A stretch of 40,470 bases of DNA, taken from the UHGV virus genome UHGV-0078430; one strand, written 5' to 3'. The stretch is from a virus. The stretch's first letter is position 1; every line of letters begins with the position of its first letter. The translations under genes were made by a program, and so were the position numbers. Positions 1 through 15,349 of the stretch are shown in pieces. Below the pieces are notes generated by a model, which made no database searches, was not told where the DNA came from, and saw only the letters and a program-made list of their open reading frames with translations.

Positions 1-49
1 TTATAAGTTCATCTTTAAATGATAATCAATTGCATGGGAGTTTATCACC

Positions 50-1570
50 ATGAGGAGCGTAATTACATACTTGAGATTCTCATCAGCCATACAAGGCGCT
101 GAAGGTGCAGATTCAACCAGACGACAAAATGACCTGTTCAAGCAGTGGCTGAAGAAGAATAGCGATGCTCAAGTAGTAGCGTCTTTCAGTGATGAAGGTC
201 TATCCGGTTACAAAGGTAAGCATCTTACTGGTCAGTTTGGTGACATGTTAGCCCGTATTGAGTCTGGGGAGTTTCCAGAAGGTACGATTTTGCTTGTTGA
301 GAGTATCGACCGTATAGGCCGCTTAGAACACCTTGAAACAGAAGCCTTGATGAATCGCATCTTAGGCAACGGGTTAGAGATTCACACGCTACAAGATGGT
401 CTTATCTACACAAAGGATGCTTTAGCCGATGATTTAGGAATCTCAATCATCCAGCGTGTCAAAGCCTACATAGCGCATCAGGAGAGTAAGCAGAAGTCTT
501 TCCGTGTTAGCGAGAAGTGGAAACAACGTGCAAAACTTGCCCTTGCTGGTGAACAACGTTTAACAAAGATGGTTCCCGGATGGATTGACCCCGATACTCT
601 CAAACTCAATGAACACGCTGAGACTGTAAGACTGATTTTCAAGCTGCTGCTAAGTGGTGAAAGTCTGCATAACATTGCACGTCACCTTCAAAGCAACGGT
701 ATAAAGTCGTTTAGTCGCCGTAAAGATGCTAACGGGTTCAGTGTTCATTCTGTGCGTACTATCTTAAGGTCAGAGACAACGATAGGCACACTACCAGCAT
801 CACAACGTAATGACCGCCCCGCTATACCGAACTACTACGAAGCCGCCATAGACGCTGCAACGTTCAATAAAGCTCAAGAAATCCTCGATAAAAATCGTAA
901 AGGCCGTACACCTGCAAGTGATAACCCATTAACGATTAACATCTTCAAGGGATTATTCCGGTGTCAGTGTGGGGCTAGTGTCCATCCTACCGGAACAAAG
1001 AATAAGTATGCTGGGGTCTACAGGTGCAATAACCACTTAGACGGTCGCTGTGATGTTCCACCGCTGAAGCGTAAACCGTTTGATAAGTGGATGCTTGAAA
1101 ATTTTCTAGGAATGATTGACGTGGGGAATGATGGAGAAGCAGAGGGGAAGATTGCATCTCTACAGCATGAGGTTGAAATTGTCACAACCAGAATCAAGAA
1201 AGCTACCGCCCTACTTCTTGAGATGGATGATATTGATGAACTAAAAATTCAGATTAAGGAACTGAACCAGAGGCGTACAGAGCTACAGACCACGATTGAT
1301 AACATGAGGCGTAAGGCTTCACTCACTGATAAGGAACTACCCCAGCTTAAAGATATTGACCTGACAACTAAAGCGGGTCGTGTCGAGTGTCAGTTGATTT
1401 TGTCCAAACATCTAAAAGGGCTTACATTGGGTAAGGATTCGGTAATTGTAACGCTACAGAACGACACTGAAATCACCATACCTACAAACCCGTTACCGCT
1501 AAATGATGGAACATCAATATTTGAAATTGCTGAAAAAGAGCTACTAGAAATAGACGCTTATCAACTGTAA
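50..1570 (+). CDS. large serine recombinase (integrase/resolvase family)
   Basis: N-terminal YLRFSSAIQ catalytic-serine motif and ESIDRIGR motif typical of resolvase-type catalytic domain; 506 aa with Cys-rich zinc-ribbon-like block (CQCGAS...YRCNNHLDGRC) and coiled-coil C-terminus as in large serine recombinases. Confidence 0.85.
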   Translation: MRSVITYLRFSSAIQGAEGADSTRRQNDLFKQWLKKNSDAQVVASFSDEGLSGYKGKHLTGQFGDMLARIESGEFPEGTILLVESIDRIGRLEHLETEALMNRILGNGLEIHTLQDGLIYTKDALADDLGISIIQRVKAYIAHQESKQKSFRVSEKWKQRAKLALAGEQRLTKMVPGWIDPDTLKLNEHAETVRLIFKLLLSGESLHNIARHLQSNGIKSFSRRKDANGFSVHSVRTILRSETTIGTLPASQRNDRPAIPNYYEAAIDAATFNKAQEILDKNRKGRTPASDNPLTINIFKGLFRCQCGASVHPTGTKNKYAGVYRCNNHLDGRCDVPPLKRKPFDKWMLENFLGMIDVGNDGEAEGKIASLQHEVEIVTTRIKKATALLLEMDDIDELKIQIKELNQRRTELQTTIDNMRRKASLTDKELPQLKDIDLTTKAGRVECQLILSKHLKGLTLGKDSVIVTLQNDTEITIPTNPLPLNDGTSIFEIAEKELLEIDAYQL

Positions 1571-1575
1571 TTTTC

Positions 1576-1598
1576 AGGGGCTATGAAGCCCCTTTTTA
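1576..1598 (+). terminator. putative Rho-independent terminator after recombinase gene
   Basis: 7-bp stem aggggct/agcccct with 4-nt loop followed by ttttta. Confidence 0.45.
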
Positions 1599-1602
1599 TG
1601 TC

Positions 1603-2394
1603 TCAATAAGTGCCCTTCTTGTTCGGATTTACAGAAAACTTCCGTAAAGCATTACCCGACTTAAGCACCTTTGAAGCTTGCTCATTAGCTGAGGCTGTGA
1701 AGGTGCTCTCACCATTTTTAACACTAACGCTCTTAGAGCACGTTACACGGGCTTTTAGCGCTTCATCTGATAACTCACTTGCCGAATAGCTAAAAAGCTC
1801 TTTACAGGTCAGCATAGGGCTTCCAAGACTCGTTGTAGTGTTGCCAGTGTTCTTTTTACTGGTAGCACCACCATCATTCGTAGTCGCGGCTTTTCCAGTT
1901 GCAGCCGAGATATCAGTCTGCCCCACAATAGCTTTAAAGTTAATTTCCTGAAAAGTTAGCTGGATTCTTAGGCCATTTGAAATACCAACATCTTTAGAGG
2001 CTTTAAAGCTCGTGATAATGGAATCATCAATTTTAATTCCGTCTTTACAGATGACCGAAATAATCTGCTTCTGGTCACGCCAGTTTTCCAGAGTGTCGAT
2101 GAAGTTTTCTACCAGCTTATTATCTCTTGAGATAAGGATACTACCGGATTCACCAACCACAACCACACCACTAATAGTAATTGTTCTGGGTGAACGCATT
2201 ACATTATCTGTTACAGTCTGCCCTGATTGCATATTTTGAGTGGTCACCATCATAGGGCTGTCATATTCCATGTTTTCAGTTGCTGATAGTGACAAGAAAT
2301 TATCTGGTTGGCCTTGTAGATGAAAGTAAACGCCATCTTTACCAGTGTAACGAAGCTGATTAGTGTAAATCATTAAATTCTCCTTTGATTTCAA
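1603..2394 (-). CDS. hypothetical protein, possibly distal-tail (Dit)-like by position
   Basis: 263-aa ORF immediately downstream of tape-measure-like gene, Ser/Thr-rich C-terminal half; function inferred only from position. Confidence 0.4.
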
Positions 2395-2455
2395 AGGCTT
2401 AGTGTATTTTAATCATTTTTAACCAAGCCTTTGATATATAAGTGTTTTCTCTGCT

Positions 2456-2519
2456 AAGCGTGTTGTACGTAAATTCTATTTTTCAGTGTGGGTATTAGCT
2501 TTACAGATTTCACGTAGCA
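2456..2519 (-). promoter_or_regulatory. conserved upstream element, copy 1
   Basis: about 64 bp sharing blocks (tgctacgtgaaatct, atacccac, tttacgta, cacgctta on the minus strand) with a second copy at 4601-4663; lies upstream of ORF 1603-2394. Confidence 0.45.
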
Positions 2520-2530
2520 TTCGACTATTA

Positions 2531-4579
2531 TTAATCATCTTCTGGGAATGATGAACTTAATAGCGTAGCTTCTGCATATTGGTCGTAGATATTACTGCTA
2601 AAGGTCATAAAGCTGGTTTCATCTGGTTTAATGGCAACTTCACCACCAAGTGAAACTTTCACAGGCTCCTGAATACGTTTGCTCAAAGCACTAATTTCAT
2701 CTCTCAGGCTTTGGATATCCGTATTCGTTAATGCCGCATCTTGTCTCATGGTGATTAATTCTGGATGCTGGAAGTTAGCAAGATTCATAGCTGCACTACT
2801 AAACCAACCTTTAACATCGTCCATAGTGAACACTGGTTTAAGTCCAGACTCTTTAGCTAGCTCTGGTAATTTAGCTTGTGCTTCCATTCGTTCAGGTGTA
2901 GAAGCTAATCTCTCATAACCTGCATAGATAGCACTACCAGCTAATAACATATTCCCAAGATTAAACCTTGATGGTTTCCCGTTCTTTCTATTCACGTTAT
3001 CCGCTGTAGTATCAGCGACCTGACCTAATCTTGTGATAGCAGTCATAAGCCCGTAAATACTTCTGGTTACACCAACAACTTTATTCACAGCAATAACACC
3101 AGCCAAGACTTTTAAACTATTAATCAAGCCAGAACCTAAAGCATCAACTACTTTCTTTTGTTCATCGGTTAAACCACGGTAAGCTAATGTCACCTCATCA
3201 AAGAATGCTCTTACCCTGTAGCTGATATCAGTCAATGAATCCACACCACTTGACATAGAAGTCATGAGACTACCAAGAGATTCACCAAGACTTTTACCGC
3301 TTCCACCTAAACTATTTAAAAGATTGGTTAAGCTTCTTGTGAAATCTTGAAGACCATTTTCAGAACCTCTGAAGATACTATCAAGCGTGGTATTCCAAGA
3401 GTTTTTCAGGTTCCCTAGTTGTGCCTGTGTACTTTCTGAAATAGCTTTCCAGCCGCCTTTAGCGGTGATTTGTCTATTCAGTTCCTGAGTGACCTTCTGA
3501 AGAGTATCGGCAGATTTTAAAGCCCCCTTCTTCATGGCATCAAATAATTCCTGTTCAGTCTTTCCGGTTGCTTTAGCGAATACCTGAACCATACCAGGAA
3601 CAGCTTCAGCTAATTGCCCCTTAAGCTCTTCAGCCATAATCTGACCCTTACCAGCCATCTGTGATAATGCTGTCAGTGCTCGCTTAATCTCTTCTTCACT
3701 TCGACCCATTAAACGAGAATAGCCAATCATATTTCTAAAAAGTTCTTCAGAACCTTGAATACCCATAGATTCTTTAGCTGAAGCACCAAAACCAGCAAAC
3801 TGTGATTGCAGTTCAGCGATATCTAAACCCGTTGTTTGAGCTAATGACTTTGTGAAATCTTTTACTTGACCTGCATCTTTATCAAATACGAAATCAATAC
3901 TTCTTTCCGATGATGCACGTTGAAGGCCAACTTCCATTACTCGCTGATAAGCGGATAGTACAGCCTGAAAGCTGATAAATGCACCTGCTGCTCTAACCGC
4001 TGCTGAAGACAGGTTATCAAGGCTGCTAGCTGCTCTGTCACTATTAATGCTGGTGGATGTATGACCTCTGGCTTTAGCAATTGCTTCTCTGACTGAAGCG
4101 TTTAACTGAGCTAACTTCTCATTGAATTTTGAAGAATCCATTGACCCGGCTTTAGCAGATAGCCCGTAAAACTGACTCTTAATGTATTTCTCGACAATTG
4201 GGTTAAGGCCTTTTAGCTTGCTCATATTCGCTGAGTAAGCTGCTGTGATTGCTCTGTTTCCGCTAATTCGTGGCTGTCTTGGTTGTTTTGGAGGATTAAC
4301 AGTGTCATTAAATCTGGTGGTAAACTGGAAAGCTTTAGTATTTCTTGCTCTCTGTTCAATCTTGTCAAAGGCCTTATTAAACTTCCTTTCAAGTTGCCCT
4401 AAAGAACTTGTCAAATTACTATCAAGCTGTTTTGTATTAATCCTGAAACCTTTATTTAGGTTCTTTTCAATTCTTTGTGCTGACTGCAAAGCTGCCTTTT
4501 CAACTCTTTGCAGTCCCTTAATAACGTTCTCGCTGAAGCCTAGCTCAACGATAAAACTATCAACTTTAAATTGTGCCAT
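2531..4579 (-). CDS. phage tail tape-measure-like protein
   Basis: 682 aa, coiled-coil N-terminus, central region resembling tape-measure domain (GLDIAELQSQFAGFGASAKESMG ... ALSQMAGKGQIMAEELKGQLAEAVPG ... FAKATGKTEQELFDAMKKG), Gly/Ser-rich segment; assignment from recalled motif pattern. Confidence 0.6.
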   Translation of the reverse strand: MAQFKVDSFIVELGFSENVIKGLQRVEKAALQSAQRIEKNLNKGFRINTKQLDSNLTSSLGQLERKFNKAFDKIEQRARNTKAFQFTTRFNDTVNPPKQPRQPRISGNRAITAAYSANMSKLKGLNPIVEKYIKSQFYGLSAKAGSMDSSKFNEKLAQLNASVREAIAKARGHTSTSINSDRAASSLDNLSSAAVRAAGAFISFQAVLSAYQRVMEVGLQRASSERSIDFVFDKDAGQVKDFTKSLAQTTGLDIAELQSQFAGFGASAKESMGIQGSEELFRNMIGYSRLMGRSEEEIKRALTALSQMAGKGQIMAEELKGQLAEAVPGMVQVFAKATGKTEQELFDAMKKGALKSADTLQKVTQELNRQITAKGGWKAISESTQAQLGNLKNSWNTTLDSIFRGSENGLQDFTRSLTNLLNSLGGSGKSLGESLGSLMTSMSSGVDSLTDISYRVRAFFDEVTLAYRGLTDEQKKVVDALGSGLINSLKVLAGVIAVNKVVGVTRSIYGLMTAITRLGQVADTTADNVNRKNGKPSRFNLGNMLLAGSAIYAGYERLASTPERMEAQAKLPELAKESGLKPVFTMDDVKGWFSSAAMNLANFQHPELITMRQDAALTNTDIQSLRDEISALSKRIQEPVKVSLGGEVAIKPDETSFMTFSSNIYDQYAEATLLSSSFPEDD

Positions 4580-4600
4580 TGTTCATATTTCACCTCTGTT

Positions 4601-4663
4601 AAGCGTGAGCTACGTAAAAAATAATTTTTGGTGGGTATATCTGTTCAGGAGATTTCACGTAGC
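4601..4663 (-). promoter_or_regulatory. conserved upstream element, copy 2
   Basis: second copy of the 2456-2519 element, ends about 20 nt upstream of the tape-measure-like start codon; contains 7-bp inverted repeat gctacgt/acgtagc. Confidence 0.45.
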
Positions 4664-4789
4664 ACACATACAAAAAAGGGAGAAACTACCGAATAATATC
4701 GATAATCTCTCCCCGTGTTATAGATTCGATAGAACCTATCTCATACACCCAACCAATTCTATTAGATTCGATTAGAAGCTAATCTCAAA

Positions 4790-4999
4790 TTAATGCCTGA
4801 CAAGATAATGTAGTTCCGTTTCACCTATAATTTGAGCATCGGAAGGGATACGGTCGATACACCACTTTGGAATCTTGCGTGTTTTTGGTTTGCGTGAGGT
4901 GATAATTTGATGTTTGGTTTTAATTCTTAAGGCTGGCTTAGTTTGTAACTTTAAGTTTTCACAAACAGACCGGATAGTCTCTAAACGTTCTTCAAACAT
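4790..4999 (-). CDS. hypothetical small basic protein
   Basis: 69-aa ORF between two larger minus-strand genes; no recognisable motif. Confidence 0.3.
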   Translation of the reverse strand: MFEERLETIRSVCENLKLQTKPALRIKTKHQIITSRKPKTRKIPKWCIDRIPSDAQIIGETELHYLVRH

Positions 5000-5022
5000 T
5001 AATCACCTCTTTTAATTCATAA

Positions 5023-5733
5023 TTAAAGCACCTTTGAGTACTTCGTTGAAATCTTCGTTAACTGCTCAATATCGGCTTGCATAGCAATCTTCTTCTGCGT
5101 TTCATATCCACTAACAAGCTCTTTCATGCTATCAAGTTCTTTTCTAAGTTTTTGCTTTAACTTATCCAGTTTACCGGAATAATGCTTAGTCAAATTAGCT
5201 TCAGCTAACTGAAGAATCTCTTCGTCTGTCTTATCAGTCATCAGGATAAATTGACCAGAACCCCTTAATGCTTGTCTGACATCAATTAACCGGAACCCTT
5301 CAGGGATACTTTGAAGAACTTTAGGAACGTCTTCAATCGCTGTACCAAAACCATCATTAAAGTTTCCTTCATAATAGATAAACGGGTTTGACTTAATCTC
5401 GTAAGCAATATCATATTCTGAAGGTTTCGAGGTTTCTTCGAAGTTCTTAACAGCATCGTAAGCAATATCAAGTCGAATACGCTGTTCTTTTAGCCGTGGG
5501 TAATATTCACGCTCAAGCTCAAATAGTGCTTCAGTTTTGCAAACATCAGGCATCTCCTGAGGTTCAGGATACACAAAGATGGTTGTTTTTGGTGACATCT
5601 TTAGCGATTGCTCAAGCTTAATTCTTTCATCGTGTTCTTTACGCTGGATAGTGATAGCTGGATGTTCAGTCTGTGGTGACCAGTCCCCGAAGCTATCAAT
5701 CTTTCTGCCGTTAATAAATAAATCATTTGTCAT
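5023..5733 (-). CDS. hypothetical protein
   Basis: 236-aa ORF with Lys/Glu-rich coiled-coil-like C-terminus; no recognisable catalytic motif. Confidence 0.5.
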   Translation of the reverse strand: MTNDLFINGRKIDSFGDWSPQTEHPAITIQRKEHDERIKLEQSLKMSPKTTIFVYPEPQEMPDVCKTEALFELEREYYPRLKEQRIRLDIAYDAVKNFEETSKPSEYDIAYEIKSNPFIYYEGNFNDGFGTAIEDVPKVLQSIPEGFRLIDVRQALRGSGQFILMTDKTDEEILQLAEANLTKHYSGKLDKLKQKLRKELDSMKELVSGYETQKKIAMQADIEQLTKISTKYSKVL

Positions 5734-5940
5734 TATAACTTCCTCTAAGTGTGGTTATTTCTTAATAGAGCACCTTCAACGCCAATACACTTAGAAGATG
5801 ACTTAACGATTTATTAAAGATGCTCTATTAAGAAAAGCCCTAAACATAGGTTCATCCTTATCTGTGAAGGGCTTTGGAGTTTGCTTATAACGTTAACGGA
5901 GTTTCAGGAAAAACTTTCTTTAAAAGCTCTGTTTAAAAAC

Positions 5941-5973
5941 TCTTAAAGAAACGCCCTAACTCATGATTAGGGC
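5941..5973 (-). terminator. putative terminator between upstream 4-gene operon and downstream genes
   Basis: stem gccctaa/ttagggc with 7-nt loop; on the minus strand followed by gtttcttt. Confidence 0.35.
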
Positions 5974-6304
5974 AAAGCTGTAAGGGTTCAATAATGAATG
6001 ATTAAGCACTTTTTGATATATAGCCTATCTAGTGGGCTAAATAGGCCATGTAGCGAAAAGCATTGCACCTTTCAGAATGTTCGGTATAGAACATACCTCA
6101 CCAACTCAGAATATCCATCCATCCATCGGATTATTGAAAGAAAAATAAGAGAGAATTACTCTCCCATAATTAAAATTATGTCATGCTTAAGGTTATTTGT
6201 CAACAGCTTTTTAACAGATTGGTAACATTAATTCTTATTTACCGTGTTACCTACCCAGCAACCAACAAATAAACCCAAAGCTGTCCAAGCAATTATTAAG
6301 CCCA

Positions 6305-6649
6305 TTAATGCACCACCTTCGAATCCGTCACCAAAATATTGTCAGCGTACAAAATTGCTATAGCTGCCTTGAGATATCCTTCAGGGCTAACGCTGTATTT
6401 GTTCGTTTGCTCGATAACCAATCTTTTCATGTTGCTGTCTTTAATTGGTAGCATCATTCGAGGCTCGTTAAACTCCACCGACTGAATAAAGTCAGAGATG
6501 CTTTCCGCATTATCAGCCATTAACTCTAACAACTTATCAAAGTCAATGCTAACACCTACATCAGTGAAAGCCTGAATCATCATAGCGGTGTCGTTATCAA
6601 CCATAATTTGCATTGGGTAATTGTTCATTTTTAAATTCCTATAAAACAC
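6305..6649 (-). CDS. hypothetical protein
   Basis: 114-aa ORF, last gene of a co-directional 4-gene cluster; true start may be internal Met (MNNYPMQ). Confidence 0.45.
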   Translation of the reverse strand: MFYRNLKMNNYPMQIMVDNDTAMMIQAFTDVGVSIDFDKLLELMADNAESISDFIQSVEFNEPRMMLPIKDSNMKRLVIEQTNKYSVSPEGYLKAAIAILYADNILVTDSKVVH

Positions 6650-6765
6650 ATCTTAAATCTGCCAAAATAGCCATTCTGAGGCCAGTAACCATGCGGGTTA
6701 CAGAGGGAGTGAGACACCTTAGTAATAGGGTAGCTCATCTTTGAGTCTCACTCATTCTTACAGGC

Positions 6766-7152
6766 TTACACAGACGCTTTAATCTTGTAGTATTGACTGC
6801 GTGATAAACCGTATTTCTCAGAAATATAACTTTGTGATTGTCCTTTGGTGATTGCATCAATGATTAAATCTTTATCGTATCTTTTACCGTTGGCTTTGTG
6901 CTTGTCGCCACTTTTAATAGAGTTGAAATTCTCAATTAATTTAATGGCGTCTTTAAGGTCGTCTTCGTAAGCATAATCAAAACCCCTGATAAACTCGAAA
7001 TCACCATTATCTTTTTGTGCTTCAGTCCAGATATCAAATCTTGAGGCTAATTGCTGGTGGGTAAACTTGGGCTTATTGGTTTGTGTTACGTCTTTCCAGA
7101 CTTTACCGTCAAATCTTACCAAATGGTCACGATGTTTATAAAAGTCATACAT
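6766..7152 (-). CDS. hypothetical protein with C-terminal helix-turn-helix
   Basis: 128 aa; C-terminus ISEKYGLSRSQYYKIK resembles HTH of resolvase/terminase-small-subunit/transposase-type DNA-binding domains. Confidence 0.5.
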   Translation of the reverse strand: MYDFYKHRDHLVRFDGKVWKDVTQTNKPKFTHQQLASRFDIWTEAQKDNGDFEFIRGFDYAYEDDLKDAIKLIENFNSIKSGDKHKANGKRYDKDLIIDAITKGQSQSYISEKYGLSRSQYYKIKASV

Positions 7153-7430
7153 TAAACCTCCATCGCTAATTTGTGAATTTTAATGCTTAGTAACCTTGCT
7201 AAATCCAGTCCAAAAGCATTTAAAGATTTCAGATTATCAAGGTCGGCTTGCTCAATCCTGATATGGTGTCTTGCAGCCTCTAAGCGGCTATTAAGCAAAT
7301 CTTGTTCGTTAATATCACGGTTAATTGCAAGCTTCATCACTGCTGAGTGTGGCAGACCTGTAATGTTTTTGATTCGGTTCAGTTCATCAAAGGCTGTCTT
7401 TGTAACTCTGGTTAAAGTGTGTTTGCTCAT
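7152..7430 (-). CDS. hypothetical protein
   Basis: 92-aa ORF; start overlaps stop region of upstream gene and stop abuts next gene (translational coupling). Confidence 0.45.
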   Translation of the reverse strand: MSKHTLTRVTKTAFDELNRIKNITGLPHSAVMKLAINRDINEQDLLNSRLEAARHHIRIEQADLDNLKSLNAFGLDLARLLSIKIHKLAMEV

Positions 7431-7431
7431 T

Positions 7432-7989
7432 TTAAAATTCCTCTGTAACTAAATACGGGTCAAACTCGAAATCTGGTTGCTCGTTTTCCATTGGCTCAAT
7501 ATTTCCAACGGCAATATGATGCTCAACAACACCAATTAACTTTGCGCACATTACAGCAAGCAAAGCGCAATATTTATCGCTTGGTAATTCATGGCTAAGT
7601 CTGGTTGCTTGACGCTGAAGATGATTTGTCACGGTGGCTGAGTTAATTTCATCAAGACTTCGCAGTAAATAAAAAACCTTCTGGTTGTATTTCTGGTGAC
7701 CCTCGCTTCTGCAAAATCCAATAAAAATATCATCAAGCTTGCTCGGTAGTTGCGCGTAGCTGTCAAAGCTAGCCAGATAATTCTTGATGCTGTTCTTTGT
7801 TGTTTTGCGTGTTGGCATGTAACGGTTCCTCGGTGTAATTGCCCGAATTACTTCGTCAATGCCTTTGCGTTCTTTCTTGGTAAACTTGGGTAATTCGTGG
7901 CTGGTGGGGGAGTTTGTGTAAGCGTAGGAGTTGTGCTTGTTGCGTTCTCTTGATGCCTGAAGCATCGCTCTAAATTCTGCGTCTCTCAT
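7432..7989 (-). CDS. hypothetical protein
   Basis: 185-aa ORF, first gene of the 4-gene cluster; divergent promoter region upstream (7990-8112). Confidence 0.5.
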   Translation of the reverse strand: MRDAEFRAMLQASRERNKHNSYAYTNSPTSHELPKFTKKERKGIDEVIRAITPRNRYMPTRKTTKNSIKNYLASFDSYAQLPSKLDDIFIGFCRSEGHQKYNQKVFYLLRSLDEINSATVTNHLQRQATRLSHELPSDKYCALLAVMCAKLIGVVEHHIAVGNIEPMENEQPDFEFDPYLVTEEF

Positions 7990-8076
7990 TCATATTCTGA
8001 CCCTCATAAGATGTTATTATTCTGTTAACTTATATAGACAATACTAGCATTTTCAAAGACTAATGTCAAGCATTTT

Positions 8077-8106
8077 TTAACATTTTATTAACATCTGTGG
8101 TATAAT
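8077..8106 (+). promoter_or_regulatory. putative sigma70 promoter with extended -10
   Basis: TGgTATAAT at 8098-8106 with ttaaca -35-like hexamer about 17-18 bp upstream. Confidence 0.4.
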
Positions 8107-8286
8107 GGTTCTATGGGGAGAGTAAAATATAAAGGCGTGGCTATGATTTGGTCACATGGTTATTGCATTGCACACAGACCTCTTCAATCGCTCTGTAACG
8201 AGTTAAACAGCCTCTTAAGGTCAACTATAAGGTCAGGTACTTTTTTGTGTCAGAATGCGATTGAGAGCGTCTTACAAGGAAAACTA

Positions 8287-8463
8287 ATGGTAAATCTCCC
8301 TCCTGAGCTGGGGTCACCTGATGTGTGGGCTGGTGGAGGTGTGGGTCTGTTCGCAGGTCTGTTACTTCGCTACGTCCTCGTCAGGGTGCTTGTTGTCTTT
8401 AGACTGTTCGGTCGTACATGGACGCTTGACCTTAAGGATAACAACCACACAGACCCCCGTTAA
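8287..8463 (+). CDS. small hydrophobic (single-pass membrane-like) protein
   Basis: 58-aa ORF (MVNLPPELGSPDVWAGGGVGLFAGLLLRYVLVRVLVVF...) preceded by AAGGA RBS; sits in a locally GC-rich patch inside the AT-rich island, downstream of a strong promoter; both overlapping frames are open so coding status is uncertain. Confidence 0.3.
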   Translation: MVNLPPELGSPDVWAGGGVGLFAGLLLRYVLVRVLVVFRLFGRTWTLDLKDNNHTDPR

Positions 8464-8476
8464 ACTCCCTTCAAAA

Positions 8477-8515
8477 CCCCCTGTACGAGATGGTATAGGG
8501 GTATCTTTAGCATTT
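8477..8515 (+). terminator. weak terminator-like hairpin
   Basis: cccct/agggg stem with 14-nt loop followed by T-rich tatctttagcatttt. Confidence 0.25.
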
Positions 8516-8583
8516 TGTGCTATCTATTAAAAAACAGCTTGACATAACCGGAAAGCTGTATCTATCAAGTATTCACCTCTCTG

Positions 8584-8755
8584 ACAGTAATTGCTAAAAG
8601 TTCTTATTTTTCAATAAGTTGTAATTAGCCATATATAGAGAACTGACAAGCCTCTTCACAGTTAACTCTGAAACCTTAACAGTAAATTCTAAAAGTTCTT
8701 ATTTTTCAATGAGTTGTAATTAGCCAATATAAAGGACTGACAAGACCCTTCACAG
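8584..8755. repeat. tandem direct repeat, 2 copies of about 78 bp at 95-bp period
   Basis: 8584-8661 and 8679-8755 align along their length (acagtaa.t.ctaaaagttcttatttttcaat.agttgtaattagcca...gactgacaag.c.cttcacag). Confidence 0.7.
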
Positions 8756-8783
8756 AGAACTTCCTGGACTCACTAAGATACAA

Positions 8784-8990
8784 GGCGATAACCCCAGAAA
8801 GGGAGAGCCACCTTCTTAACCGACTTCTTAAACAATCTTTACAGACCCCGTTCACCAGTCTCAATATTTTTATTTCTCGCTCTTCGTTTGTTGCTCGTTT
8901 CTATTATTGAGGGGGTTTGAAAAACCTCTGTAAAATAACCCTTCCAGTAAAAAGCGAATAACCCCAGACAGGGGAAATCGCCTCTTTAAC
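8784..8990. repeat. two copies of about 36-bp element
   Basis: gcgataaccccagaaagggagagccaccttcttaac (8784-8820) and gcgaataaccccagacaggggaaatcgcctctttaac (8954-8990). Confidence 0.4.
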
Positions 8991-9021
8991 ATTCTCGTAA
9001 TCAGTGCTCTATATGAGAATT

Positions 9022-9684
9022 TTAGCCCAACCTTTGAGCAATCCTGTATGACGTGCTCAGAGGCATTCTGAGAGCATCTGCAATGCACTTAATGGGTTTG
9101 CCTTGCCTGTATAGTTTTATGAAGCTGTCGAGCGTCTCAGGTGGGTAAATGGTGGGTCTTCCTCTTAAGCCTCCTCTGTTAATGATGGTTAACGGTAATA
9201 GCGTGTCAGCACAGCAAACCATCTGCGTAATTTCATGCTTACGTGGTTCTTTTTTAAAAACAACGACTGCACTTGGAAACGGTGAACGAATAACAAGCCT
9301 GTTATGGCCTGCTGGTGGAAGGTATTTAACTGCACGATGAAGAATACGGATTTCATGGCAAAGCGGGTTTGTGAAGATGTGCTTAAGCCAGTATATGGTT
9401 TGGGGTCGGTACGGTATCAGGAATACCGCTAAATCTGCTTCAGACGCTTTTACGAGGAATGTTTTAGTGTCGCTGTATGGTGGGTTACAGAATACCTTTT
9501 CACCAACCCATGACTGATTGTGGATATCATCGGTGAACCGTGGCAACAATGCGTCATGCTCAGTTGCAGCACCATCCAGACTGAAACTAAACTCACGGTG
9601 TAAGTTCTTGAATAATAAAAATGGAGTTCTCCAGTAATCAGAACCCCCATGATGTTTCCCGATTAAAATACACTCAATTGACAT
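9022..9684 (-). CDS. phage-type DNA N6-adenine methyltransferase (Dam family) with C-terminal HTH
   Basis: FCNPPYSD catalytic motif, DGAATEHDALLPRF upstream motif typical of phage Dam-like MTases; C-terminal HTH-like tail (LSTSYRIAQRLG). Confidence 0.8.
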   Translation of the reverse strand: MSIECILIGKHHGGSDYWRTPFLLFKNLHREFSFSLDGAATEHDALLPRFTDDIHNQSWVGEKVFCNPPYSDTKTFLVKASEADLAVFLIPYRPQTIYWLKHIFTNPLCHEIRILHRAVKYLPPAGHNRLVIRSPFPSAVVVFKKEPRKHEITQMVCCADTLLPLTIINRGGLRGRPTIYPPETLDSFIKLYRQGKPIKCIADALRMPLSTSYRIAQRLG

Positions 9685-10001
9685 AAGAAATAAAAATTTT
9701 TATTGCAATCACTCTTGACAAGGTTTACTCTCTTTTAAGAGATACTTAACAGGCTTTCTAAACGGATATCCTTTCTGGGATATCTATCTCTTATCTTAAA
9801 AGTCTTTATAGATACTTTAAAGATATCTGTATTAAATCTGTACAGTAACTTTTCAGACTCTGAAAATTTTTATAAAATCGTAATAGCCCCTCTTCAAATT
9901 CCCCTTCTAAAAATCTTCGAAAATATCTATCACAGGTCTATACCTGCTAAGTACCCGCCACACCAGCTATGTGACCCCCTTTGCAGAATTTTAAAATATC
10001 T

Positions 10002-10766
10002 ATGAGGTTTATTCGATAGAGGTTGGTACAAGCCCAACTAACCGAATCAACTATTGACTTTCTTCATAGTATCTGTTAACTCCACCTCAAGAAACCTTCA
10101 TCACACTTCAAAGCATCTATCAAGAAGATTTAACCTATCAATAGCTGTAACATTTTATAGTTCTGTGAAGTCCTATCCAGTTTTCTCTGTAACAGACACA
10201 AACTTCTGTGACCTTATGTATCAATGACTTACAAGACATGCTCTCAAGGTGCTGTATAGCCTCTTATCAGCCAATACACAAAACCCTTATAAATCAGTAC
10301 TGATACATATACAGTGTGTTTTTAACATAATAGCTGTTTTACGCACTAATCGTGTTCTACATGAAATCTGTATAGATATTAAGGTGTCTGTAAGTGATTT
10401 TTTAAGAGGAACTACGAAGGAACTATGAGGTTGATTCCTAGAACTAACCGAATCAACTATAACCATCACCTCCTAACTTTCACATAGCTGATTGTTATCT
10501 CTTGCAACTGTAACGTATGGTGACCAAACATCTATATATCGTTATATAGCCCTGTATATAGCACTTTTCTAGGAGTCTGGAGAGGGACGACTAACACGAT
10601 ACAGTTTACCCTGAAAAGAGACTTCACAGATTCTTTATATATTTCAATAAGTTAGGGTAAAAAGAGACTATGCTGATACTGCATAGAATCTGTGTAAAAC
10701 TGCTTAGATACTTGGGAAAATGCCTTTAAATTGCATAGTCATAGGGGTTGGAACAAGCCCAACTAC
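10002..10766. repeat. family of three related 25-55-bp elements in an ORF-poor region
   Basis: 10002-10056 atgaggtttattcgatagaggttggtacaagcccaactaaccgaatcaactat; 10424-10460 atgaggttgattcctagaactaaccgaatcaactat; 10741-10766 ataggggttggaacaagcccaacta; core gttgg-N7-ccaac dyad. Confidence 0.5.
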
Positions 10767-11054
10767 ACCTGATATTGTCCTGTAATTAACAGGTCTCTTA
10801 GAAAACCGAATAGACTTCATTCAAGGGTCATTGAAGTCATAATCATTTCAGTAGAAAAACCAGGTCTCGATTTTAAATGCAAATAGCAATCATATTCAAT
10901 AAGGCAAGACGATCAGGATCAGTGAAAATGTCATTTTTGGCGTAATTACCCTTACTTTATGCATGGCCTTAACAAAGACATCATCTTTCCGTTGCAGATC
11001 TTCGCCCTTTCAAATAACGTACTTTACAACTTTCCCGAACAAGGAGTTGTGCCC

Positions 11055-11351
11055 GTGTTGTATGTTATTTACGCTCAAGACAAAGCTGATAGCCTCGAAA
11101 AACGCCTTTCCGTTCGTCCGGCACATTTAGCACGTTTACAGTTACTGCATGATGAAGGTCGTTTGTTGACAGCTGGTCCAATGCCAGCGGTAGACAGTAA
11201 CGATCCAGGGGCTGCGGGATTTACTGGCTCAACCGTTATTGCTGAATTTGAATCGCTGGAAGCAGCTCAGGCCTGGGCCGATGCTGACCCGTACGTAGCG
11301 GCAGGAGTCTATGAACACGTTTCAGTGAAACCATTTAAGAAAGTGTTCTAA
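11055..11351 (+). CDS. yciI: YciI-like protein
   Basis: 98-aa product from GTG start with AAGGAG RBS 8 nt upstream; sequence (RPAHLARLQ...GRLLTAGP...ADPYV..GVYE) matches my recollection of enterobacterial YciI family; the longer ORF from 10959 is probably not the real start. Confidence 0.75.
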
Positions 11352-11415
11352 TTTATTAGAAATTTGCACTTAAATCAAAAAGTTACGGACAATTCAACCA
11401 CCAATCAATAAATTA

Positions 11416-11469: not shown

Positions 11470-12018
11470 TCAGCTAGCTGGAAACTTTTTATACAGAGTT
11501 GAGAGCCCTACTCCATACGTTTTTGATACGCTTTGTCGTGATTCACCGGTTGCCATCCGCTCCCCCATTTCCCGCCATTGCTCATCCGTGAACTTAGGCC
11601 TGCGACCACCAACTCGCCCTTTTGCCCTGGCTACGGCCAGCCCTGCTAAGGTACGTTCGCTATTAAGATCAGATTCATATTGTGCTGCGGAAAGGATGTT
11701 ACGAAAGTTATAGCGGCCGCTGGCTGTTTTGAGATCCACGCCATCGGTAATACTGCGGAAGTTGATACCCTTTTCCTGTAACTGCTGGAACATCAACAGC
11801 GCATGCAGAACGTTGCGGCCTATCCTGTCCAGCTTCCAGACCACCAGTTCATCCCCCGGCTGCATAGTGGCGATCAGCCGTTTTAGAACCGGCCGATTCG
11901 ATTTCCTCCCGCTGGCATGCTCTTCAAAAATTTTCTCACAACCCGCTGACTTGAGCGCCGTTAGTTGCAATTCAGTGTCCTGGTGGTTTGTTGATACTCG
12001 GGCATAACCGTAAATCAT
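11470..12018 (-). CDS. site-specific DNA invertase (Pin/Gin/Hin/Cin family small serine recombinase)
   Basis: MIYGYARVSTNHQ catalytic-Ser N-terminus, VVWKLDRIGR motif, C-terminal HTH (VGLSTLYKK); start trimmed to internal ATG at 12018 with AGGAG RBS 7 nt upstream. Confidence 0.9.
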   Translation of the reverse strand: MIYGYARVSTNHQDTELQLTALKSAGCEKIFEEHASGRKSNRPVLKRLIATMQPGDELVVWKLDRIGRNVLHALLMFQQLQEKGINFRSITDGVDLKTASGRYNFRNILSAAQYESDLNSERTLAGLAVARAKGRVGGRRPKFTDEQWREMGERMATGESRQSVSKTYGVGLSTLYKKFPAS

Positions 12019-12021
12019 GGG

Positions 12022-12048
12022 ATTTCTCCTGTTATGAAAACAGGAGAA
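12022..12048. other. 27-bp inverted repeat overlapping the invertase RBS
   Basis: minus strand tttctcctgtt-ttcat-aacaggagaaa, 11-bp arms with 5-bp spacer immediately upstream of the invertase start codon. Confidence 0.3.
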
Positions 12049-12077
12049 ACGGCGAAGCATCACCAGATTTTTGATGG

Positions 12078-12103
12078 TTATAAAAAAGGTTGGTTTGGGA
12101 AAC
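12078..12103. other. candidate hix/gix-like recombination site
   Basis: ttataaaaaaggttggtttgggaaac resembles my recollection of 26-bp hix/gix sites (TTATCAAAAACC..GGTTT..); only one copy found. Confidence 0.3.
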
Positions 12104-12152
12104 ACGAAGTATGAATGTAGTGCACCACATAAATTTCGAATCTTTGGCAAGC

Positions 12153-12183
12153 AAAACTGGATCACTAATAGTGATCCAGTTTT
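12153..12183. other. perfect 31-bp palindrome
   Basis: aaaactggatcact-aat-agtgatccagtttt, 14-bp arms; downstream of tail-fibre stop; terminator or protein-binding site. Confidence 0.4.
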
Positions 12184-12251
12184 AAATACCAATCGAAGGT
12201 TAAATGGTGGGCTTGTTGAGCCTAGAGCCTGTACATAAATTTTTTATTTTA

Positions 12252-14687
12252 CTATTCCATCTCGTCCATTCTCTTCATGACCATTGCGATATTCCGTCGT
12301 TGAAGCGCCGCCTCCATCACCAGAGCCTCCTCATATCGGATGCCGTATTTCTCACCGACAACGTAAGATTCAGCTATCAGCTTTTCATGCGCTGGTTCGG
12401 TCATGTTCCACAGCTCTGGTGAAACCTGTTTCCCATCGTCATCATAAACCGCTGGCACGACTTCATACACAGCAGGGACTGATTCATAAACAGCGGGAAT
12501 GGTTTCTTCTGGGTCGTAGCAAAAGAAAGCAAAACTATGAGGATCAAGGCCGTGGCGTTCAAAAGCCTCCTTGGCACGCTGAGCAATAATTCCAAAGTGC
12601 CAACGAGCACCGTCATCACCCTTGGCCTCTATCCTGTCGATAAACTGGAACTGCACGAAATCTACTTCCGCCCAGGCGTCCAGGATAATATCGGCATACG
12701 AGTCTTCCATCAGCCTGGGATCGGATACCGCCTCTGGCTCGAGGGACCCACGTGCCAGCATGACTGGACGTGATTTTTGTAGCTCATCGGATGTAACGGT
12801 GAACGCCGTCTGAGTGAATCCGCCAGCCCATATGGATGAGCTTGTCCCGACGCTATACGTGTTAGTCGCAACCGGCTGAACATTCCCGGTCACTCGAAGA
12901 GGCGAAAATACATCACTGACCGTAGCCGCAAATCGGGCTAACTCAGTACCCGGCGAATCCTCTGTAGAACCAGAATAGAGACGAACGCCGTTTTTACTGA
13001 ATATCGTGGTCGCAGATAAATCGTTAGCACCCTTTATCACGCCAATTCCAGCCTGCCAGTCCGCAGAACTGGGGCCTGTGACATCAGTGATGCTGTGCAG
13101 AGTTCCGCCCATCCGCCCGAACGGATCTGTAACGTTATCAAGATGCACCCCTCTTATCGTTATTTTACCAGTACTGCCGCCACCAGATACAAACCCTACA
13201 GGGCAATCCTTAAAAGTTACTCCACTTAACTTCGCGTATTTCCTGTTGATGATTGCGGCTCTGCTAACGTCTCTGCATACCAGCCCATTAATTACCGTAT
13301 CGTCCCCATTACCATACTCTCGGCCAGTCGATGTGCCACTGGTTGAGGCGGTGACAGATAAGCCATCTTCCGCGTTGGCTATCTGAATGTTAGAACCCCG
13401 GCAGTGCCGCTCTTCTATCCAGACGCCGTTTTTAAGTCGTCCGCCTTCATCACCGATAGCAACGATATTATTAAAATTAACAAATGGTGCCTTAATGTGC
13501 AGTCCGATTAACGTTGTGTAATCAGCACCAAACCGGTTTTGAACGACCGTTATGTCAGATACGTTTGCCCACGCACTCGATCCTCTTCCTTCTAAACTAC
13601 CAATCGGGCCTTGCTTGATACGAACACCCGCCCCAGGACAGCCAACGTCTCCAAAGTCAGAAACGTAGACATTAGATACTTTTGGCGCAATAGACATAAC
13701 ATCAACACCAGCCCAGGGGTTATTTGGCTCATCAAGCTGGCCGAAGTTAAATACGAAAATGTTATTAAGATGGAATGCGCGGCTGACAGATCCGTTATCT
13801 TTAATATCAATCCCATCAGCGCCGGTATTTTCTGACCAGTAACCATCAATAACGCACCCTTTGTAGCCGCCGTTCTGCAAACCCAGCCCATAGTGGGAGC
13901 AATTTTTAACCTTTAGGTTGTTGATGCTGAGACCCTCAATCCCCGCGCCGACCACCCCCTCTGTTTGTCTTACATAAGACGCAGACGTGAAATCTCCATG
14001 ATAGTTACCGTCAATGCAGATGTTGTGCAGACCTACACCATGAACTTTCGTAATGCCGTTTTGCAGCGGAGCCTTGGACCACTGGATAACGCCGTATGCC
14101 GAGTTGGTTGCATAAGCCTGAATGGTGGTTGAATTCCACCCCTGCCCACACAGGATTACGTTGTCGTAAGGAATGCGAAGAGCTGCAACGCGGATGGTCG
14201 CGGTCGAAGAGCTGAAATCAGACTCATCCATATGAACCTGATAAAGGCTTTTGGTGAAAACAATTCTTCCACCGCCAGCAGCGCTTAGTTCTGCTGCTTT
14301 TTGCATAATTTTATCGGCGTTAGATTTAGCGACAGTGATCGATACCAATCCACTTACAACACCAAATGATTCGGCTGTAACTTGAATACCTTCTAATCCA
14401 AGGTTTGTGGTAATCGCTGTCGCCAGCTTTGCCACCAGTCCATCAACGTCACCATCATCGAGCGCGTCCAGTTCGGCGTTCGCGATAAACTGCCCCAGTA
14501 CAGCCGCCATCGTCGACGGTTGGCGCAGCGCTTTACTGACCTGTGCGCTGGATGCTTTACCCGAGGAGAATCCTTTCTTCAGTGCGGTTAGCGTCTCCCA
14601 TTCCTCCTGCGAGGTAACATTTGCATTAGCATCTGTCGCAAACGCTTTAAAATCATTAGTTCCAGCCATTAAAGTAATCTCCCCCAT
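12252..14687 (-). CDS. tail fibre / tailspike protein with beta-helix-like central domain
   Basis: 811 aa, Gly/Asn/Val-rich repetitive central region typical of parallel beta-helix tailspikes, C-terminal tandem PAVYE repeats; last gene of tail module next to invertase. Confidence 0.7.
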   Translation of the reverse strand: MGEITLMAGTNDFKAFATDANANVTSQEEWETLTALKKGFSSGKASSAQVSKALRQPSTMAAVLGQFIANAELDALDDGDVDGLVAKLATAITTNLGLEGIQVTAESFGVVSGLVSITVAKSNADKIMQKAAELSAAGGGRIVFTKSLYQVHMDESDFSSSTATIRVAALRIPYDNVILCGQGWNSTTIQAYATNSAYGVIQWSKAPLQNGITKVHGVGLHNICIDGNYHGDFTSASYVRQTEGVVGAGIEGLSINNLKVKNCSHYGLGLQNGGYKGCVIDGYWSENTGADGIDIKDNGSVSRAFHLNNIFVFNFGQLDEPNNPWAGVDVMSIAPKVSNVYVSDFGDVGCPGAGVRIKQGPIGSLEGRGSSAWANVSDITVVQNRFGADYTTLIGLHIKAPFVNFNNIVAIGDEGGRLKNGVWIEERHCRGSNIQIANAEDGLSVTASTSGTSTGREYGNGDDTVINGLVCRDVSRAAIINRKYAKLSGVTFKDCPVGFVSGGGSTGKITIRGVHLDNVTDPFGRMGGTLHSITDVTGPSSADWQAGIGVIKGANDLSATTIFSKNGVRLYSGSTEDSPGTELARFAATVSDVFSPLRVTGNVQPVATNTYSVGTSSSIWAGGFTQTAFTVTSDELQKSRPVMLARGSLEPEAVSDPRLMEDSYADIILDAWAEVDFVQFQFIDRIEAKGDDGARWHFGIIAQRAKEAFERHGLDPHSFAFFCYDPEETIPAVYESVPAVYEVVPAVYDDDGKQVSPELWNMTEPAHEKLIAESYVVGEKYGIRYEEALVMEAALQRRNIAMVMKRMDEME

Positions 14688-15349
14688 GCGCCGTCATCAA
14701 AACCGGCGATGTATTCGTTATCCATGTCAAATCCAAAGAATTTTGTTCCTTCGGACGGTGTTTCGACCGAGGGTGTTTCAACGCCGCCAGCCCATACACC
14801 AGCAGCTTTAACGGTGAGATAACCCTGTTTGATAGCGGCTATCAGTTCGAGTGACACATCAGAAATATCAGTCTCGGGAAAAACCCAGACCGATATCGTC
14901 ATGTCCTGGTTGTCGACAATTTGCATCCTCAGGCCTGAGCCTGCAGTCGCAGCGTCAAGGATGGGAGGCAGAGAGTCGTTCCGACCGTCCCAGTTGTTGA
15001 TAGCGATTTTCGCTTTCAGAATGATGCGGTACGTCTCATCGCTTAGCGTCGTATAGCCAGAATCAGGATCATATGGCCCTTGCCAGATGCCCTGGTCATA
15101 CCCAAGCCCGTCAGTGTCCCAGCTGAAATAAACTCCGCTAATTGGCTGGCTGACTATGCGACTGCGTCCGATCCACAGACCGAGGATGTCGAGCTGTACA
15201 CCGACAGCAGTATCGATATCGAAGGCTGTTATAAGCCCTGACATAGTGCTGGACACATCAATCAGCGGGCGGGTGCTCAGATCTATATGGTCAAAAAAGA
15301 GTGGCTTGGTAGCGTGGTAGTTAGTGATCAGTTCGGTGTATTTGCTCAT
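14669..15349 (-). CDS. baseplate protein (P2 gpI / Mu gp48-like by position)
   Basis: 226 aa, between baseplate J-like gene and tail fibre gene as in P2/Mu gene order. Confidence 0.5.
   Translation of the reverse strand: MSKYTELITNYHATKPLFFDHIDLSTRPLIDVSSTMSGLITAFDIDTAVGVQLDILGLWIGRSRIVSQPISGVYFSWDTDGLGYDQGIWQGPYDPDSGYTTLSDETYRIILKAKIAINNWDGRNDSLPPILDAATAGSGLRMQIVDNQDMTISVWVFPETDISDVSLELIAAIKQGYLTVKAAGVWAGGVETPSVETPSEGTKFFGFDMDNEYIAGFDDGAWGRLL

Follow-up and report, generated by a model that had tools for sequence, protein, structure and literature searches.

An 11-kb integrative element at the tonB start codon of Escherichia coli as a candidate satellite of Felixounavirus phages

The virus genome UHGV-0078430 of the UHGV collection, a stretch of 40,470 nucleotides called the window below, begins with an AT-rich island that belongs to a family of integrative elements of about 11 kb tied to the phages of the genus Felixounavirus. 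No description of this element was found in full-text searches of the literature. Felixounaviruses are strictly virulent myophages that package their DNA by means of direct terminal repeats (DTR). We consider it somewhat probable that the island is a phage satellite or another kind of phage parasite. A satellite-like element, one of the options listed in a first-pass annotation of the same DNA, is the best-supported option, given the large serine recombinase (LSR) with exact att junctions, the tail genes and cis-acting sequences probably derived from a helper, the initiator module found in sister elements, and a GC content equal to that of the phage. The chances are about even that it represents the first satellite family of Enterobacteriaceae to live on strictly virulent Felix O1 phages, one that would build chimeric tails with its own tape measure protein (TMP) and tube initiator, mimic the DTR packaging signal, and occupy the tonB start codon while providing a substitute promoter.

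The GC content of positions 1–10820 is 39.6%, against 53.4% for positions 11353–40470, where no 10.8-kb segment has a GC content below 50.8%. The sliding GC profile stays at 36–45% until about 11 kb, rises in a sharp step and then remains at 48–59%. The AT-rich first 11 kb beside a higher-GC prophage, which the first-pass annotation had pointed out, is therefore a real compositional feature. The island is similar in composition to the Felixounavirus phage wV8 (38.9% GC). It corresponds to no complete known prophage, no phage record covers more than 5% of its length, and it consists of no ordinary core genes.

The host is E. coli, and in annotated genomes the same element sits between tonB and yciI, which are adjacent in strain K-12. 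Alignment with the empty site of K-12 allowed exact mapping of the junctions: the 13-bp core TCAAGGGTCATTG is found at both island ends and once in K-12 (attB). The LSR inserted the element at this core, which spans the start codon of tonB. Position 1 of the window lies about 37 bp inside the island, with the attL core upstream of it, and the right limit is at 10820/10833 (attR core), giving a total length of about 10.9 kb (10.87 kb). The end proposed earlier, at 10958 beside a YciI-like gene, has to be moved accordingly; positions 10834–10958 are the displaced native promoter region of tonB and not part of the island. In reverse complement the core reads as the tonB ATG and the next 10 nt. 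The tonB open reading frame (ORF) of 239 aa is consequently preserved, and the native promoter under Fur control remains beside yciI, from window position 10834 onward, about 10.9 kb from tonB. A candidate island promoter facing tonB could replace the displaced one and may supply substitute iron regulation. The Fur-like sequence next to it has 13 of 19 consensus matches, compared with 12 of 19 for the native tonB Fur box, which lies at a similar distance from the ATG; a score of 13/19 at the tonB-proximal end is no better than that of many other sites in the window.

Joining of the island ends rebuilds an attP site with perfect 8-bp inverted arms, symmetric about the core. It reads CCGAATAG-N28-CTATTCGG, the sequence being AGACTTYATTCAAGGGTCATTGTATTGTAGC. 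Such symmetric arms are as expected for a serine integrase, and the att sites look functional. The discrete insertion, the short common core and the inverted attP arms round the crossover are the features by which a mobile element of a serine integrase is recognized. The integrase itself is under purifying selection, with dN/dS of 0.12–0.16.

The link to Felixounavirus was revealed by two tail genes. A megablast search against 50,697 phage records returned matches only to the Felixounavirus group (Felix O1-like phages), all of them at the Dit-like gene, with 83–88% nucleotide identity among the matches listed. Matches to PDB entry 9ndy identify the Dit-like protein (E=3e-112 to chain 9ndy_A) and the TMP as the tube initiator and the TMP of the Felixounavirus tail. 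The tube initiator is 69.6% identical to wV8 gp74 over its full length, and the island TMP is 30% identical to wV8 gp73 over residues 1–510. At the nucleotide level, the tube initiator gene shares 85–93% identity with the phage gene, and window positions 1828–2344 share 85–88% with wV8. Gene 74 of wV8 directly follows the TMP gene 73 (gp18 and gp17, respectively, in phage Bas63), and the island keeps this order. These two were the only island ORFs with a wV8 homologue in the protein comparison. The relatives of the tail genes are thus myophages, contrary to the siphophage affinity suggested at first, and the TMP, then described as short, is with 682 aa not especially short next to 742 aa in the phage.

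In the virion structure of Bas63, the initiator forms a tube-like hexamer atop the hub and has a C-terminal extension of about 100 aa that runs through the baseplate, while the last 25 residues of the TMP touch the hub and the puncturing apparatus (PMC12609058). Core residues 30–190 of the island initiators are 74–100% identical to the phage protein. Their C-terminal 75 aa or so show 32–46% identity to it in every island variant, compared with 93–99% among the phages. The tube-like core of the initiator is thus phage-like, and the extension of about 75 aa, which is predicted to contact the baseplate, is specific to the island. The island TMPs comprise 682–726 aa, 16–60 residues fewer than those of the phages (742–743 aa). 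They retain the N-terminal 45 aa or so and the terminal motif LLSSS(F/Y)PE(D/E)(D/E), which reads LLSSSFPEDD in the window and LLSSSYPEEE in the phage type, and their interiors are 10–45% identical to the phage TMP. Phage TMPs are 96–100% identical to each other, and the TMPs of other islands are 49–93% identical to that of the window. In some variants residues 30–100 of the initiator are 100% identical to the phage protein, and in others the last 30 nt of the TMP gene are 97–100% identical to the phage gene; such variant-specific patches indicate repeated exchange or strong constraint. Conservation by domain closely fits the structural interfaces of Bas63, the parts predicted to dock onto the tail being kept and the rest strongly diverged.

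Two segments of non-coding DNA are also related to the phage. Positions 9745–9807 are 86% identical over 63 nt to the divergent intergenic region between genes 45 and 46 of wV8, and about 245 Ounavirinae genomes match this leader element at 84–87%. In both phage and island the CTTGACAAGGT box is followed, in the same orientation, by a nested hairpin. The second segment (9838–10000), when reversed, is colinear with part of a 1.6-kb ORF-free region of the phage which, according to records with experimentally determined ends (PMC8303462), holds the DTR of about 580 bp. The island segment spans the right boundary of this terminal repeat. Positions 9974–10000 are an exact copy of a 27-mer that lies inside the repeat (wV8 14903–14929) and is single-copy in wV8. 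It is exact over 24–27 nt in at least 93 records of Felixounavirus-group phages, and in end-resolved records it lies about 25–50 bp from the right end of the repeat in both of its copies. In Felixounavirus genomes this region lacks ORFs of at least 30 aa in all frames; in wV8 (13885–15560; L004) it is unannotated except for terminators.

The island is one member of a widespread family. Its signature gene, o236, is present in 377 of 5,426 complete E. coli genomes (about 7%), always on the chromosome, in up to three copies per genome and with 70–96% nucleotide identity. Homologues of island genes also occur in Shigella (more than 1,000 contigs for some o185 clusters), Escherichia albertii, Escherichia fergusonii and Salmonella, a host range that matches that of Felixounavirus. 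Ten variants share a common core consisting of o114, o236, o69, the TMP, the tube initiator and the LSR. They are strongly mosaic, with o69 being up to 100% identical beside a TMP at 49%. The core genes are intact in every variant examined, with dN/dS of 0.07–0.40 at dS up to about 1.2 and no stop codons. A second LSR type (507 aa, 35% identical) directs integration at a different site, by the DUF72/isochorismatase/aspS cluster (L012, 4335–6968; L011, 8865–10869). In two variants (L010 and L011) the slot of o185, o92 and o128 is occupied by a gene for a 319-aa replication initiator related to O-like PHROG families (E down to 4e-11), and this slot is therefore read as an exchangeable replication/regulation module. 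The right half is variable, with either a Dam methylase or, as in L008, an HNH-AP2 endonuclease in its place, and beyond it a 221-aa orphan, a small invertase or nothing. The part of the earlier proposal of a composite island that spoke of novel cargo thus agrees with the swappable genes of the right half; as an account of the whole element, a composite island is not the best-supported option.

The lengths of the other variants are 11.2–11.8 kb from core to core, and metagenome copies reach 12.0 kb. Headful packaging of the island as an 8-mer (8 × 10.87 kb, about 87 kb) was considered and dropped, since the other variants would give 90–94 kb. One metagenome contig (QZLR01001205.1; L043) carries a 4.4-kb mini-derivative between the same attL and attR cores, and the LSR is the only protein of the window island detected in it. 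The endonuclease gene of L008 (11028–11552) is annotated as “AP2/ERF family transcription factor,” while its product is a homing-type endonuclease with HNH_3 and AP2 domains (phrog_99, E=1e-44).

Taken together, these features suggest the following scenario. Infection by a Felixounavirus would switch the island on through the phage-like regulatory DNA. The island would then be excised and replicated, in some variants with the help of the recognizable initiator. The island TMP and tube initiator would replace the phage versions on phage-made hubs, resulting in chimeric tails, predicted to be 2–9 nm shorter because the TMP has 16–60 fewer residues at about 1.5 Å each. Such tails could be used by the island, could spoil the tail assembly of the phage, or both. 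The mimic of the terminal repeat would enable the phage terminase to package the island DNA. In sum, the island would spread and the phage yield would fall, as in the PLE (phage-inducible chromosomal island-like element) of Vibrio cholerae and its phage ICP1.

Several observations weigh against a satellite. Excision, replication and packaging are steps that we infer, and the 31-mer of the attP junction had no matches in viral and metagenome contig collections, where the attR junction had 26. Island-sized contigs were considered as excised circles and rejected, since they proved to be integrated copies bordered by short stretches of flanking DNA. Genes for capsid size, terminase or other packaging functions were not recognized in the island, and the variant in the window lacks a recognizable replication initiator. 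The right DTR boundary alone is convincingly matched in the island, and a unit of 10.9 kb is hard to reconcile with packaging by a DTR phage of 88 kb. Past recombination could also have left the phage-like non-coding pieces behind. Finally, D1, a repeated element that precedes both tail genes, has no counterpart in wV8; for this reason it was rejected as a Felixounavirus promoter and is taken as the island's own, and phage-driven expression of the tail genes is likewise something we infer.

These points leave some room, perhaps one chance in a few, for an island that never undergoes packaging and acts purely in anti-phage defence: its TMP and initiator would be dominant-negative decoys leading to dead Felixounavirus tails, and it would spread by routes such as generalized transduction or recombination in the flanks. 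The missing packaging and capsid genes and the missing attP junction are in line with such a role, as are the conserved docking surfaces combined with a diverged interior and a diverged baseplate-contacting extension. Both dN/dS and diversity are greatest for the TMP, as would fit an arms race, and targeting of tail assembly is a known mode of defence, exemplified by Rta of PLE11. A decoy would, however, leave unexplained the exact copy of the DTR boundary, the conserved non-coding arm of about 1 kb, the replication-initiator module of the sister variants, the intact LSR with its symmetric attP and two site specificities, and the phage-identical GC content; moreover, PADLOC finds nothing beyond an orphan methylase.

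The remaining two explanations deny any function in relation to the phage. It is very improbable that the island is a generic LSR-mobilized element that occasionally captured Felixounavirus genes. Only two of about 11 genes and about 230 bp of non-coding DNA are phage-related, and the cargo at the right end is variable, in line with such capture; yet the phage-related parts belong to the invariant core of the family, their domain-specific conservation fits the structural interfaces, the variant-specific phage-identical patches imply repeated exchange or strong constraint, and the host range matches that of Felixounavirus. The degenerate siphophage remnant proposed in the first-pass annotation is not supported. 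A related reading, in which the island derives from a temperate, low-GC prophage akin to Felix O1-type phages and is now stripped of most genes and non-functional, we regard as most improbable. An integrase accompanied by a TMP and a tube initiator in phage order, the want of capsid, terminase and lysis genes, and the existence of a 4.4-kb mini-derivative would suit a remnant. Nevertheless, many diverged variants from several genera, inserted at two or more sites, have the same architecture of about 11 kb with intact core ORFs. The dN/dS values and the absence of stop codons rule out a decaying element, the orphan genes are specific to the family rather than eroded phage genes, and the known Ounavirinae are strictly virulent and, according to the wV8 annotation, have no integrase. 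A satellite or parasite of Felixounavirus therefore remains the favoured interpretation.

The features of the island and its right flank are listed in Table 1.

Table 1. Features of the island and of the adjoining tonB–yciI region in UHGV-0078430 (positions in the window; a point in the strand column stands for no strand)
Feature	Position	Strand	Basis or remarks
Visible island body	1..10820	.	comparison with K-12 empty site and L001; GC 39.6%
Candidate outward promoter (GTGATA-18-TATCAT) and Fur-box-like sequence facing tonB	15..48	-	weak evidence
LSR (integrase), 506 aa	50..1570	+	Pfam Resolvase, Recombinase, Zn_ribbon_recom; phrog_95 integrase, E=2e-79
Terminator-like hairpin after integrase gene	1576..1593	+	sequence
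Tube initiator protein (Pfam Dit_like)	1603..2394	-	homologue of Felixounavirus gp74 (wV8)/gp18 (Bas63)
D1 regulatory element, copy 1, 71 nt, directly upstream of tube initiator gene	2449..2519	-	kept in distant variants
TMP, 682 aa, TMP_3	2531..4579	-	E=3e-67 to PDB 9ndy_F TMP
D1 regulatory element, copy 2, directly upstream of TMP gene	4594..4664	-	repeat search
Strong terminator-like hairpin with 16-bp stem, separating o69 from D1/TMP	4677..4714	-	sequence
o69, conserved 69-aa orphan just upstream of TMP gene	4790..4999	-	in all variants; dN/dS 0-0.30; no family match
o236, family signature orphan; mostly helical, coiled-coil C-terminus	5023..5733	-	17 clusters
Conserved intergenic region upstream of o236-o69-TMP-tube initiator block	5734..6304	-	promoter and hairpins
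o114, conserved orphan	6305..6649	-	conservation, dN/dS
Exchangeable replication/regulation module: o128, o92, o185	6766..7989	-	slot swapped in variants
Divergent sigma70-like promoter pair between o185 and small plus-strand ORF	8041..8106	.	11-nt-periodic TTAACA repeats
Small strongly hydrophobic protein, about 70 aa	8251..8463	+	conserved; dN/dS 0.19-0.23; mechanical ORF 8113-8463
Repeat-rich non-coding region	8584..8990	.	95-bp duplication 8584-8761; 33-nt repeat 8788-8820 and 8958-8990
Orphan Dam-family N6-adenine methyltransferase with C-terminal HTH_7; variable cargo	9022..9684	-	HMM scans
Phage-derived promoter/leader: CTTGACAAGGT box and nested hairpin (GATATCC..GGATATC)	9714..9807	+	like wV8 gene 45/46 intergenic region
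Segment colinear with right boundary of Felixounavirus DTR	9838..10000	-	sequence comparison
Conserved non-coding right arm	10001..10820	.	85-95% nt identity between variants
attR core TCAAGGGTCATTG	10821..10833	.	reverse complement of tonB ATG and first 10 nt after
Native tonB promoter/Fur-box region and tonB-yciI intergenic DNA; outside island	10834..11054	.	K-12 comparison

Hidden Markov model (HMM) scans confirmed the serine recombinase, the Dit-like protein, the TMP and the Dam methylase that had been named from the sequence. Scans of the ORFs with Pfam and PHROG detected no capsid, terminase or lysis gene, also in agreement with the first-pass annotation. RefSeq starts the orthologue of the tube initiator at the ATG at 2373. 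The seven small genes that had seemed unrecognizable (o69, o236, o114, o128, o92, o185 and the hydrophobic ORF) indeed received no assignment from Pfam, PHROG, NCBIfam or PADLOC, and sequence searches of PDB with o236, o69, o128 and o114 gave nothing meaningful. The AlphaFold models of o236 (pLDDT 58) and o185 (pLDDT 42) were too poor for use. The only match in PADLOC-DB v2 was “orphan methyltransferase,” corresponding to the Dam gene; a weak match to PbeC (E=0.008) is not credible. Scans of the island with NCBIfam, PADLOC and Rfam and for tRNAs added nothing.

The o236 family is confined to 17 clusters at 50% identity among 1.84 billion representatives, and its RefSeq label “transposase” was rejected because no domain library supports it. 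o69 occupies the position of a tail assembly chaperone (TAC) or small effector, and o128 carries a resolvase-type helix-turn-helix at its C-terminus. The intergenic region upstream of o236 contains a strong sigma70-like promoter (6203–6175), followed by terminator-like hairpins at 6167–6145 and 5974–5952. The regulatory block and the gene of the hydrophobic protein are transcribed in divergent directions, and the protein may be a holin-like protein, an exclusion factor or a toxin that acts on membranes.

The three repeat families reported earlier, namely the 71-nt D1, the 95-bp duplication and a 25-nt hairpin repeat, are real. In all variants the TMP gene and the initiator gene are each directly preceded by D1; a third, partial copy facing right is present at 10347–10381, and the core motif occurs five times in the window, while 0.79 occurrences are expected. 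The repeat-rich region with the 95-bp duplication is a candidate origin or regulatory region. The 25-nt hairpin repeat is located at 10016–10040 and 10741–10765, in the right arm. The ORFs of this arm are interrupted in orthologues, and substitutions are not biased towards any codon position; ORFs 10054–10227 and 10249–10428 were rejected as genes owing to frameshifts and stops in the orthologues. TTAACA repeats with 11-nt periodicity are found at 8071–8094 and 6198–6228, coinciding with the two strongest predicted promoters of the island, as well as at the left end of the phage DTR (Pr103Blw; L007, 2442–2480). This likeness could be due to chance, to a common promoter architecture or to mimicry of a second cis-site.

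The DNA to the right of the island is unrelated to it. Immediately after the yciI stop codon a separate myophage-type prophage of about 53% GC occupies positions 11353–40470, encoding TerL, a DUF1073 portal, baseplate J and SLT. It was rejected as a helper because it shows no resemblance to the island and because the majority of island copies lack a neighbouring prophage. In this prophage a Hin/Pin-type invertase ORF (11470–12192, minus strand) adjoins an 811-aa tail-fibre ORF (12252–14687, minus strand), which suggests an invertible fibre switch. The mechanical “YciI” ORF (10959–11351, 130 aa) reaches too far at the 5′ end: as annotated, yciI has 98 aa (297 bp), which would place its start near 11055. 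Two database records deserve mention. GU169904.1, “Staphylococcus phage SA1,” holds Felixounavirus sequence (90% identity over 1.2 kb) and is probably a chimeric assembly, and PV390658.1, Escherichia phage vB_EcoM_P54, labelled Tequatrovirus, has a Felixounavirus-like tail module and is probably mislabelled.

Felixounaviruses are widely used in typing of Salmonella and E. coli, in food biocontrol and in therapy cocktails. If the favoured interpretation is true, a resident element capable of blocking or hijacking them would have consequences for the prediction of host range and for the design of phage products. PLE-type parasitism of virulent phages and chimeric tails built by satellites would no longer be a peculiarity of Vibrio, and would occur in many Shigella and Salmonella as well as in roughly 7% of the E. 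coli genomes sequenced. The system is tractable, since Bas63 of the BASEL collection infects E. coli K-12 and its solved virion structure already shows where the island TMP and initiator would dock. In addition, the elements contain about eight families of orphan proteins and about 1 kb of conserved non-coding DNA, with candidate roles in induction, replication, packaging and possibly capsid remodelling.

Judged by homology and gene content, the island appears to fall outside PLE, P4-like satellites, phage-inducible chromosomal islands (PICIs) and capsid-forming PICIs (cf-PICIs), known prophages and the systems covered by PADLOC. P4-like satellites, PICIs and cf-PICIs, too, are small E. coli islands; their cargo varies, and they rely on a helper phage or interfere with it, but they have tyrosine integrases and temperate helpers, whereas the island has a serine recombinase. 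Pfam and PHROG scans of the island ORFs found no domains of the P4-like hallmarks (alpha primase-helicase, Sid, Psu, Delta, P2-type cos), and there were no matches to those of PICIs and cf-PICIs (AlpA, primase-rep, TerS/Ppi; capsid, portal, terminase). Among these groups a predicted tmp has been reported only for cf-PICIs, not for P4-like satellites or classical PICIs. The EPIPs of Mycolicibacterium resemble the island in combining a serine integrase with their own TMP, and alter tail length; unlike the island, they encode TerS, head-to-tail adaptors, a scaffold and a capsid protein, and live in an actinobacterial host with a temperate siphophage helper (10.64898/2025.12.02.691453). With the hub module of Felixounavirus the island shares a homologous TMP and initiator in the same order, but it is chromosomal and has none of the other structural genes.

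PLE of V. cholerae is the closest documented system. It has an LSR, parasitizes the virulent myophage ICP1, and encodes a TAC, a TMP and a hub protein that are 19–41% identical to those of ICP1; its chimeric tails are 10 nm shorter, and one PLE variant encodes a small orphan inhibitor of tail assembly (bioRxiv 10.1101/2025.01.29.635557). The other tmp-bearing satellites described in the same work are Vibrio elements and cf-PICIs, and do not include this island. The Pfam, PHROGs, NCBIfam and PADLOC libraries revealed no sequence homology between island and PLE genes; no RepA_N initiator, TcaP-type scaffold or NixI-type nuclease was recognized, and PDB searches with the small island proteins returned no PLE TAC or RepA chains. 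The two also differ in host (Enterobacteriaceae and Vibrio), in length (about 11 and about 18 kb), in the second tail gene (the tube initiator in the island and the hub protein BhuB in PLE) and in integration site (the tonB start codon and a Vibrio repeat, respectively). Induction, excision, replication and transduction upon helper infection are traits of PLE, and for the island they are predicted. Nevertheless, both are small integrative islands with an LSR, a generic trait that is not specific to PLE, and the phage partner of both is a strictly virulent myophage. Both encode their own TMP and a hub-proximal baseplate protein, distantly related to those of the phage, and in both the TMP is shorter than that of the phage: 582 versus 677 aa in PLE and 682–726 versus 742 aa in the island. 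Small orphan genes beside tmp, many further orphan proteins and module-swapped variants are common to the two as well. By analogy, the island appears to work like PLE.

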